Part shown: one piece after another, positions 2,907-3,329 of the stretch
How positions within the stretch are numbered: the first letter of the stretch is position 1
Layout: every line of letters begins with the position of its first letter
From: a virus
Lineage: Monodnaviria > Loebvirae > Hofneiviricota > Faserviricetes > Tubulavirales > Inoviridae
Virus record (IMG/VR): IMGVR_UViG_2667527584_000001
Span: 1-11,798 of that record
Strand: one strand, 5' to 3'
DNA: 11,798 nt
Made by a program: the position numbers and the translations under genes
Notes under the pieces: model-generated
The model's database searches: none
What the model was told of the DNA's origin: nothing
What the model saw: the letters and a program-made list of their open reading frames with translations, nothing else

Positions 2907-3329
2907 TTACCAATAATAAGAGTTTCTTCTGTGCCACCAATAAAGCAGACCGTATCCGACGATAAGAATACCGAAAAACATTAACGACATTCCCCAGCCA
3001 GTTCCGTACCACGAAACCATATCATCGAAAACCAACCCACCCATTTCACGTACTCCGGCAGCTTCCTTAAGAATTGGTTTGAATACCGGAATCAGAAGGG
3101 CGATCGCCAGTGGAGCACCCCAGCGAACAAGGCCTGTTTCCATTTTGATCCCGAAAAAGATCCCCGCCCCAACAACAAGCAGCCAGACTATCAGGCCAGG
3201 CGCAGTTTCCAGTGCTGTTTGCCATTCAACATCGAAAGTTTTCATTAGCCAGGCAACAACTGCCAGACAGAAAGCAAATACGCCGACGACAACCAGTTCA
3301 ACGCCGCTTGTTTCGTTATTTCTACTCAT
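2907..3329 (-). CDS. Hypothetical integral membrane protein, 140 aa, about 4 predicted TM segments
   Basis: Four hydrophobic stretches are visible (LVVVGVFAFCLAVVAWL, GLIVWLLVVGAGIFFGI, GAPLAIALLIPVF, GMSLMFFGILIVGYGLLYW). An AGGA-like Shine-Dalgarno lies upstream. It sits between the repressor and the nuclease-like gene on the same strand. Confidence 0.55.
   Translation of the reverse strand: MSRNNETSGVELVVVGVFAFCLAVVAWLMKTFDVEWQTALETAPGLIVWLLVVGAGIFFGIKMETGLVRWGAPLAIALLIPVFKPILKEAAGVREMGGLVFDDMVSWYGTGWGMSLMFFGILIVGYGLLYWWHRRNSYYW

Follow-up and report, generated by a model that had tools for sequence, protein, structure and literature searches.

The stretch of DNA analysed here, hereafter called the window, comprises 11,798 nucleotides (nt) of the IMG/VR inovirus record IMGVR_UViG_2667527584_000001 and carries a filamentous prophage next to Escherichia coli genes. 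We investigated a gene of its minus strand, located between the immunity repressor and a nuclease-like gene, which encodes a protein of 140 amino acids (aa) with four predicted membrane helices. This gene holds a nearly constant place behind the repressor, and exchangeable cargo genes begin at its stop codon. The features required for the argument are the following (ORF, open reading frame; dN/dS, ratio of nonsynonymous to synonymous substitution rates; HTH, helix-turn-helix).

3429..3875, minus strand: repressor of 148 aa with an HTH domain of the Cro/CI type (HTH_3, 1.6e-09; PHROG 3557, transcriptional regulator, 4.1e-74)
3330..3428, minus strand: leader between the repressor gene and the membrane-protein gene, with two hairpins and AAGGA (RNA folding, alignment)
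2907..3329, minus strand: gene for the 140-aa four-helix membrane protein (ORF, hydropathy, AlphaFold2, dN/dS, PHROG 4174)
2840..2906, minus strand: 67-nt spacer to the nuclease-like gene, without structure (blastn break points, alignment)
1766..2839, minus strand: cargo cassette, DUF6953 gene plus PD-(D/E)xK gene (Pfam PF18742, 6.9e-59, and PF22266, 1.8e-28)
2045-2839, minus strand: DpnII-MboI-like PD-(D/E)xK gene, 264 aa, the nuclease-like gene (Pfam, PADLOC)
1768-2034, minus strand: DUF6953 gene, 88 aa (Pfam)

The 140-aa ORF begins with an ATG codon preceded, 8 nt upstream, by the Shine-Dalgarno sequence AAGGA. Comparison of the gene with 11 alleles gave dN/dS values of 0.015 to 0.12 (dS ≤ 1.0). 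This strong constraint indicates that the ORF encodes a real protein, and the plus-strand shadow ORFs at 3079-3369 and 3212-3337 were therefore discounted. Thus, the ORF is a genuine protein-coding gene under strong purifying selection. In the alignment of 19 close homologues, 31 columns were invariant; across 46 sequences, down to 19% identity, P85 was invariant and P73, W107, Y108 and G125 were conserved at 90% or more.

A Kyte-Doolittle scan with a 19-residue window revealed four hydrophobic peaks, at residues 10-28 (2.61), 43-61 (2.24), 65-83 (1.62, borderline) and 111-129 (1.73). AlphaFold2, provided with the 46-sequence alignment, predicted four long helices spanning residues 9-32, 36-62, 67-90 (proline-kinked) and 111-137, with a predicted local distance difference test score (pLDDT) of 83.0 and a predicted template modelling score of 0.69; an earlier model obtained from the 19 close sequences had been weak (pLDDT 66.7). 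The mean net charge over the 46 homologues was -0.85 for loop 1 and -1.85 for loop 3, compared with +0.20 for loop 2 and +1.46 for the C terminus, a pattern of acidic loops 1 and 3 and basic loop 2 and C terminus that fits a topology with both ends in the cytoplasm (N-in/C-in). ORF, hydropathy, structure prediction and dN/dS are therefore in agreement with the four-helix membrane protein that the original prediction had placed at this locus. Its structure and position make the 140-aa product, very probably, a small four-helix protein of the inner membrane that belongs, as a constant element, to the lysogeny-side module of dif-integrating filamentous prophages of the CUS-1 and UPphi type.

The only library match was to PHROG 4174, an unannotated family, which aligned end to end with the protein (E = 1.6e-85), residues 1-140 covering all 140 positions of the profile. 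No Pfam family reached E ≤ 1, Pfam, NCBIfam and PADLOC gave nothing usable for the four-helix protein or for three of its distant relatives, and a structural search of BFVD found no match below E = 1; no fold or solved structure corresponded to the protein. It represents a new family among genes of a well-known sort, the prophage accessory membrane proteins adjoining the immunity repressor.

The fixed place of the gene and its leader

Related loci compared with the window are designated by L-numbers (L001 and so on). The identical repressor was found at 10 genomic places, and in all 10 a homologue of 139 or 140 aa begins 99 nt downstream. The same repressor-membrane gene order was present in 12 of the 13 informative IMG/VR contigs that contain the repressor, and the gene lies about 100 nt past the repressor in 22 of 23 informative related prophages. 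The block also follows a 60-aa ribbon-helix-helix (RHH)-like repressor in the UPphi-like backbone of L005 and L009 (Rep 86% and pIV 27% identical), a 40%-identical HTH repressor in L006 and a 93%-identical one in L038. In Rosenbergiella and Izhakiella (L007 and L008), a protein 89% identical to the four-helix protein is found after an 89-aa RHH-like repressor, beside an unrelated Rep of 396 aa; pIV is only 27% identical in both L005 and L007. A 42%-identical homologue lies behind the HTH repressor of a dif-integrated E. coli inovirus with IKe-like structural genes, the gene order there being HTH repressor, four-helix protein, Zn-ribbon protein of 89 aa and proteins of 159 and 127 aa. In Aeromonas inoviruses, Rep is encoded on one strand and the other strand carries a 69-aa repressor, 49% identical to the 60-aa E. 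coli one, then a 29%-identical four-helix protein and no cargo. A small repressor with the four-helix protein behind it is thus seen for four types of repressor and, in addition, in separate E. coli and Aeromonas lineages. The small proteins of 60 to 89 aa at the place of the repressor (L005 9730-9912, L007 9622-9891, L056 6672-6881) are mutual homologues (49-63% identity) without a recorded Pfam assignment; the four-helix protein always comes after them, and they look like a repressor family of the RHH type shared by E. coli, Rosenbergiella and Aeromonas inoviruses.

Locus L039, with a repressor 90.5% and a Rep 92% identical to those of the window, lacks the membrane-protein gene and contains cargo. 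YpfPhi of Yersinia pestis has other ORFs at the corresponding end (PMC4266046), and no Y. pestis protein was present among the homologues in the 49 clusters retrieved by a word-indexed search. These three observations indicate that the gene is accessory and dispensable for a working phage.

The original prediction had placed a strong palindromic hairpin on the repressor side, and the leader indeed contains two. Hairpin 1 has a 6-bp stem (3402-3417), and hairpin 2 a perfect 10-bp stem (3372-3381/3391-3400) followed by UCUUUAUU. The folding energy of the leader RNA was -28.6 kcal/mol (z = -3.9), and none of 200 shuffled sequences folded equally well. According to the alignment, the same leader is present after three other repressor types, in L005, L009, L006 and L038. 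In the first two of these loci, GTACCA/TGGTAC replaces GTCTCA/TGAGAC in hairpin 1, both sides being altered and the pairing kept. The conserved block extends from just past the repressor stop codon, through the two hairpins, to the stop codon of the membrane-protein gene; the hairpin leader travels with this gene and not with the repressor. The equivalent repressor-side spacers of three other lineages fold strongly too (z = -2.3 to -3.4).

On the other side of the gene, the shared strand and the 67-nt gap to the nuclease-like gene were as originally described. This spacer is unstructured (z = -0.33), and a scan of the minus strand from 2840 to 3430 for consensus promoters found none, with totals no better than those of shuffled sequences. 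Since the spacer contains neither structure nor a promoter-like site, co-transcription of the membrane-protein and nuclease genes in the window is plausible.

Exchange of the cargo genes

At least six unrelated cassette types occupy the hypervariable region between the stop codon of the membrane-protein gene and the left attachment site (attL). Behind identical-repressor loci, the cargo encodes proteins of 264 + 88 aa, 155 + 123 aa, 367/363 aa, 89 + 240 aa or 91 + 159 aa; further downstream sets comprise the ECs_2282 Zn-ribbon protein plus a 159-aa protein, a 321-aa protein and proteins of 363 to 369 aa (369 aa in E. coli UTI89). Unrelated genes replace the nuclease cassette in L002, L003, L011, L014, L015 and L018. 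Comparison of the window with L002, L003 and L004 by blastn revealed 99.3-99.5% identity rightwards from positions 2902-2908 and none leftwards to about 1765. These alignments place the cassette boundary at the stop codon of the membrane-protein gene, and the 67-nt spacer makes up the left edge of the variable cargo.

Sibling elements with differing cargo were 99.6-100% identical in Rep and the repressor, 96-99% in the hairpin leader, 96-98% in the 5' half of the membrane-protein gene and 92.5-95.7% in its 3' half, with no identity past the stop codon. Almost all differences within the gene were synonymous. Identity falling towards the cargo is the pattern expected if the gene serves as a homologous anchor for cargo exchange, and we regard the cargo region as a recombination hotspot anchored on the membrane-protein gene.

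The membrane-protein gene was present in 128 of 5426 complete E. coli genomes, compared with 24 for the intact nuclease cassette, and relatives of the nuclease occur on plasmids that lack the membrane-protein gene. The constancy of the gene, the changing cargo, the homology break at the stop codon and the genome counts indicate that the membrane protein is not a dedicated partner of the nuclease; the nuclease pair is swappable cargo. Two alternatives had been offered at the outset, a third component (anchor or sensor) of the nuclease system or an accessory lysogeny function such as superinfection exclusion. The first is not supported, as homologues mostly occur apart from the nuclease module, and the second is compatible with all the findings and is the reading that we prefer.

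Two PADLOC models matched the nuclease-like protein itself, Aga_Helical-REase in its C-terminal part (1.3e-34) and PDC-S35 in its N-terminal 107 residues (3.6e-11). DNA remotely related to its gene (67-71% identity over about 300 bp) is found on many E. coli plasmids, in some cases annotated as 'malate dehydrogenase', which looks like a mis-annotation.

The cargo survey covered positions 1766-2906 of the window and their equivalents in L002, L003, L005-L009, L011-L020, L038 and L046. Some families recur across lineages, among them a protein of 155 or 159 aa with an N-terminal helix, in versions that are 36-62% identical, and a protein of 363 to 369 aa; the two share a similar 'NKGK...KN(V/I)xI' stretch. 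The pair formed by a Zn-ribbon protein of 89 to 91 aa and the 159-aa protein is present in CUS-1-like, UPphi-like, Izhakiella, Pectobacterium and IKe-like prophages. Tandem copies were of two kinds: L001 and L002 have identical cargo, and of L011 and L012, in adjacent ranges of one metagenome scaffold, one copy has the nuclease plus DUF6953 and the other the 155 + 123-aa cargo, both with the 140-aa gene. A hairpin motif that is not found in the window, TTCGGGTGTCACNGAACCCCGAA, was seen repeatedly where modules join in various inovirus lineages, upstream of the membrane-protein gene in L007 (9912-9934), L008 (6889-6911) and L046-L049 and downstream of it in L011, L020 and L028-L030. It often adjoins a second hairpin, ACCGTGGGAAACCACGGT, and might act at the borders of cassettes as a common terminator or as a signal in single-stranded DNA.

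The hypervariable regions (pHVRs) of the Vibrio dif-type CTX-I inoviruses are defence hotspots flanked by xafT (PMC12715192). Like these, the element of the window is a dif-integrating inovirus with 1 to 2 kb of defence-rich hypervariable cargo and one constant accessory gene near the attachment site. The two differ in the flanking gene and in location. In Vibrio, the cargo is bounded by zot on one side and, on the other, by xafT, the product of which is a soluble Xer activation factor; in the element described here, it extends to the left attachment site from the repressor side, where the flanking gene encodes a four-helix membrane protein.

The element and distant members of the family

The remaining features of the window are as follows.

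1-1589: E. coli hipB-hipA
4047-5099, plus strand: Rep (Phage_CRI + G2P_X_C)
8031-9056, plus strand: Zot
9056-10300, plus strand: secretin
11172..11199, plus strand: intact dif site, 28 bp (exact match, 0 expected by chance)

The plus-strand prophage genes (4047-10300) also encode a single-stranded DNA-binding protein, coat proteins and a DUF2523 protein. The intact dif site marks the element as an Xer-dependent, dif-integrated inovirus. Its backbone proteins are those of E. coli UTI89, indicating that the prophage is of the CUS-1 type. CUS-1 was reported to be 99% identical to Y. pestis YpfPhi over a 7.1-kb core (PMC4266046). Two ORFs of the interval between the secretin gene and dif (10389-10637, 82 aa; 10834-11031, 65 aa) are present in all siblings, have no family assignment and correspond by position to the right-end ORFs of YpfPhi (YPO2280a/YPO2281). 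The ORFs adjoining attL in CUS-1, orf1 and orf1a, were reported to be unrelated to YPO2271/2272 (PMC4266046), and the attL segment of UTI89 holds the 369-aa and the 140-aa ORF. Of 229 UPphi prophages, 221 retain the reverse ORF closest to the core and only 56-57 the outer two (PMC7307601). Matching the names, we infer that the 140-aa gene is probably orf1/orf1a of CUS-1 and the reverse-strand 'h' ORF of UPphi901. The CUS-1 and UPphi papers give no topology, family, distribution or role for those ORFs (PMC4266046, PMC7307601).

Megablast and tblastn searches of GenBank phage records returned no match to the element, which is thus known only as a prophage. L004 (NZ_CP128883.1) is a circular record of 9565 bp, deposited as an untypable plasmid, that is 99.4% identical to positions 2908-11185 of the window; it is the complete phage genome, presumably in its replicative form. 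L005 (JARKOR010000214.1), from a metagenome bin labelled 'Candidatus Nanosynbacter', contains E. coli-type hipBA (HipA 98% identical) and the UPphi-like prophage, and its assignment is almost certainly a binning error.

The 49 clusters of the word-indexed search were all from Enterobacterales and all at least 52% identical to the four-helix protein. A profile search of 1.84 billion representatives retrieved 41 proteins, including relatives of 120 to 160 aa at 19-42% identity that keep P73, P85, W107-Y108 and G125. All of the named distant relatives are labelled "hypothetical protein", and the hosts of the family include Lonsdalea, Pantoea, Rosenbergiella, Aeromonas and Methylobacter. Two remote relatives (23-26% identity) are encoded in conjugative type IV secretion system (T4SS) clusters, beside the coupling-protein gene. 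Another is part of a three-gene set (108 aa, 161 aa and the 138-aa family member) located 584 bp upstream of a type II operon of the cyclic-oligonucleotide-based antiphage signalling system (CBASS). Further relatives were found in the cargo of a Tn7-like element, after a ThiF-type operon; in a P1-like phage, after ddrB; at IS1595-flanked spots in Methylobacter and in a metagenome; and in Mixta, as an orphan copy near glsB.

The set on the CBASS side (L042 7125-8417, L054 6117-7408) is carried by an IncHI2 mcr plasmid and by Enterobacter chromosomes, beside genes for CD-NTase, ThiF/E1-E2, JAB and SAVED proteins; its two soluble proteins matched no Pfam family. A search for a conserved partner among the neighbours of the distant relatives found a single recurrent gene, and only outside inoviruses. 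In four such cases, the family member is convergent with, and slightly overlaps, a gene of the opposite strand encoding a multi-helix protein of 150 to 168 aa:

L021 8377-8829, minus strand: multi-helix gene
L059 7350-7805, minus strand: multi-helix gene
L051 8399-8884, minus strand: multi-helix gene
L061 7429-7935, minus strand: multi-helix gene

The Methylobacter and metagenome versions of this gene are 31% identical (E = 1e-20). The distant family member and the convergent gene may form a two-gene membrane module.

Proposed function of the membrane protein

From position and context, we infer, tentatively, that the prophage makes the protein as an exclusion or defence factor that acts alone, at the level of the membrane. 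In the lysogen, transcripts from the repressor promoter would read through into the gene, the leader hairpins damping or stabilizing the message. The protein, on its own in the inner membrane, would hinder the entry or establishment of foreign DNA, that of other phages and possibly conjugative DNA, in a manner resembling P22 SieA, T4 Imm or plasmid entry-exclusion proteins. The conserved acidic periplasmic loop with its invariant W-Y-G motif and the proline-kinked third helix would be the likely contact surface. Several observations point in this direction: the position of the gene equals that of other exclusion genes expressed in lysogens, the adjoining cargo is defence-like according to the PADLOC matches, comparable hypervariable regions of Vibrio inoviruses are defence hotspots (PMC12715192), relatives occur in other mobile elements, several of them beside defence genes, and P22 SieA offers a precedent.

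SieA of phage P22, without a partner, prevents DNA from being delivered across the inner membrane (PMC10883804). As a small polytopic inner-membrane protein of a prophage (162/164 aa, 3-4 predicted helices), it resembles the four-helix protein and is the closest functional model. However, the conserved cytoplasmic motif FxRYPxEAxxFNK at the C terminus of SieA is not in the 140-aa sequence, sequence or fold similarity was not detectable (PHROG 4174 being the only match and BFVD giving none), and SieA belongs to a tailed phage, unlike the four-helix protein, whose phage is filamentous.

Several points weigh against exclusion. The 10-bp hairpin with its U-rich tract could be a terminator, which would leave the gene without an obvious promoter, so that its expression in the lysogen is an assumption. 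The gene is present in each of two tandem siblings that differ in cargo (L011 and L012), and strain ECONIH2 was reported to contain tandem copies with differing outer ORFs (PMC7307601). Superinfection by the prophage's own kind is thus not fully stopped, implying that exclusion would be leaky or aimed at other invaders. YpfPhi, apparently without the gene, was reported to protect partly against superinfection (PMC4266046). Finally, none of the genomic contexts names a function, and an exclusion role, proposed from position, seems to us somewhat less than an even bet.

F TraS and SXT/R391 Eex are small inner-membrane proteins, encoded in transfer regions, that block incoming single-stranded DNA. 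The two remote relatives located in T4SS clusters by the coupling-protein gene recall these proteins, a likeness that is positional only (23-26% identity). A bolder extension of the proposal, which we consider decidedly unlikely, is that one protein family provides a shared exclusion device of elements entering as single-stranded DNA, in filamentous-phage lysogeny modules as well as in T4SS clusters; the four-helix protein would then block the incoming strand at the inner membrane.

Prophage housekeeping is, in our estimate, an unlikely alternative to exclusion, if the best placed of them. The protein would, for example, temper virion extrusion, relieve the envelope stress caused by phage membrane proteins or maintain lysogeny. 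Its linkage to the repressor in many inovirus lineages, including cargo-free ones, would fit such a role, as would its membrane location, which it shares with the phage assembly machinery, and its strong conservation, which suggests a conserved partner. However, the gene is dispensable, as seen from L039 and from the other ORFs of YpfPhi (PMC4266046); the unrelated repressors, Reps and morphogenesis sets that accompany it leave no constant phage-specific partner; and relatives reside in plasmids, transposons and a tailed phage. A role as an inovirus morphogenesis or coat protein (pI/pXI, pIV, pVI, pVII, pIX, pIII or pVIII) was rejected: neither Pfam nor PHROG gave a match, the full set (Zot, DUF2523, secretin and coat proteins) is encoded on the other strand, and L039, with the same repressor and Rep types, does without the gene.

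Lambda RexB, a protein with four membrane helices, is made in lysogens. Its size (144 aa) and its location downstream of the immunity repressor, on the same strand, are shared by the four-helix protein, a likeness of layout only; no RexA-like partner was annotated or detected beside the four-helix gene, the neighbours of which are variable or absent. The protein could by analogy be a shared membrane effector, a channel or platform that whichever cargo lies downstream triggers, as sensor or partner, leading to abortive infection. Besides the RexB-like size, N-in/C-in layout and position, the constancy of the gene beside variable cassettes, the membrane helix that many cargo proteins have of their own and the lack of a terminator in the spacer to the nuclease gene speak for this possibility. 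We nevertheless consider it improbable. The cargo families are mutually unrelated, and one of them is a self-sufficient nuclease type that is also plasmid-borne without the gene; the Aeromonas inoviruses have the gene without cargo and L039 has cargo without the gene; and several variants contain a strong hairpin directly past the stop codon, suggesting separate units. Homology to lambda RexB itself was rejected on the comparison of profiles (hhalign with the 46-sequence profile, probability 0.06%, E = 0.79) and the lack of any Pfam family at E ≤ 1.

No more probable is a lysogenic conversion of host physiology or virulence (permeability, stress tolerance or colonization) without a role in conflicts between phages. 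CUS-1 and YpfPhi have modest fitness effects in animals, with end ORFs that are unexplained (PMC4266046), and extraintestinal E. coli, UTI89 among them, frequently carry the gene. However, the attenuation associated with CUS-1 maps to puvA, described as a virion protein (PMC4266046), rather than to the 140-aa gene, and the presence of the family in plant-associated, environmental and aquatic bacteria argues against a role specific to animal hosts. A dedicated role as third component of the nuclease plus DUF6953 system is scarcely credible, the shared strand and the plain 67-nt spacer without a promoter-like site being outweighed by the at least six cassettes found behind the same gene, the homology break at its stop codon and its presence in 128 genomes versus 24.

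Extraintestinal E. coli, plague bacilli and other Enterobacterales commonly harbour CUS-1, YpfPhi and UPphi prophages, and the function of their end ORFs has been a standing question since 2002. The fixed part of this end, consisting of the repressor, the hairpin leader and the membrane protein, can now be told apart from the swappable cargo, and a wider family of four-helix proteins of about 125 to 140 aa is defined in phages, plasmids and transposons. If the tentative assignment to exclusion is correct, the protein would be a membrane-level exclusion protein of Enterobacterales filamentous phages without a sequence or fold link to the known ones; a device shared with conjugative elements, if real, would bring phage superinfection exclusion and the entry exclusion of plasmids together in a single protein family. 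Should exclusion prove false, the gene would still be a useful marker for cargo hotspots in dif-integrated prophages.

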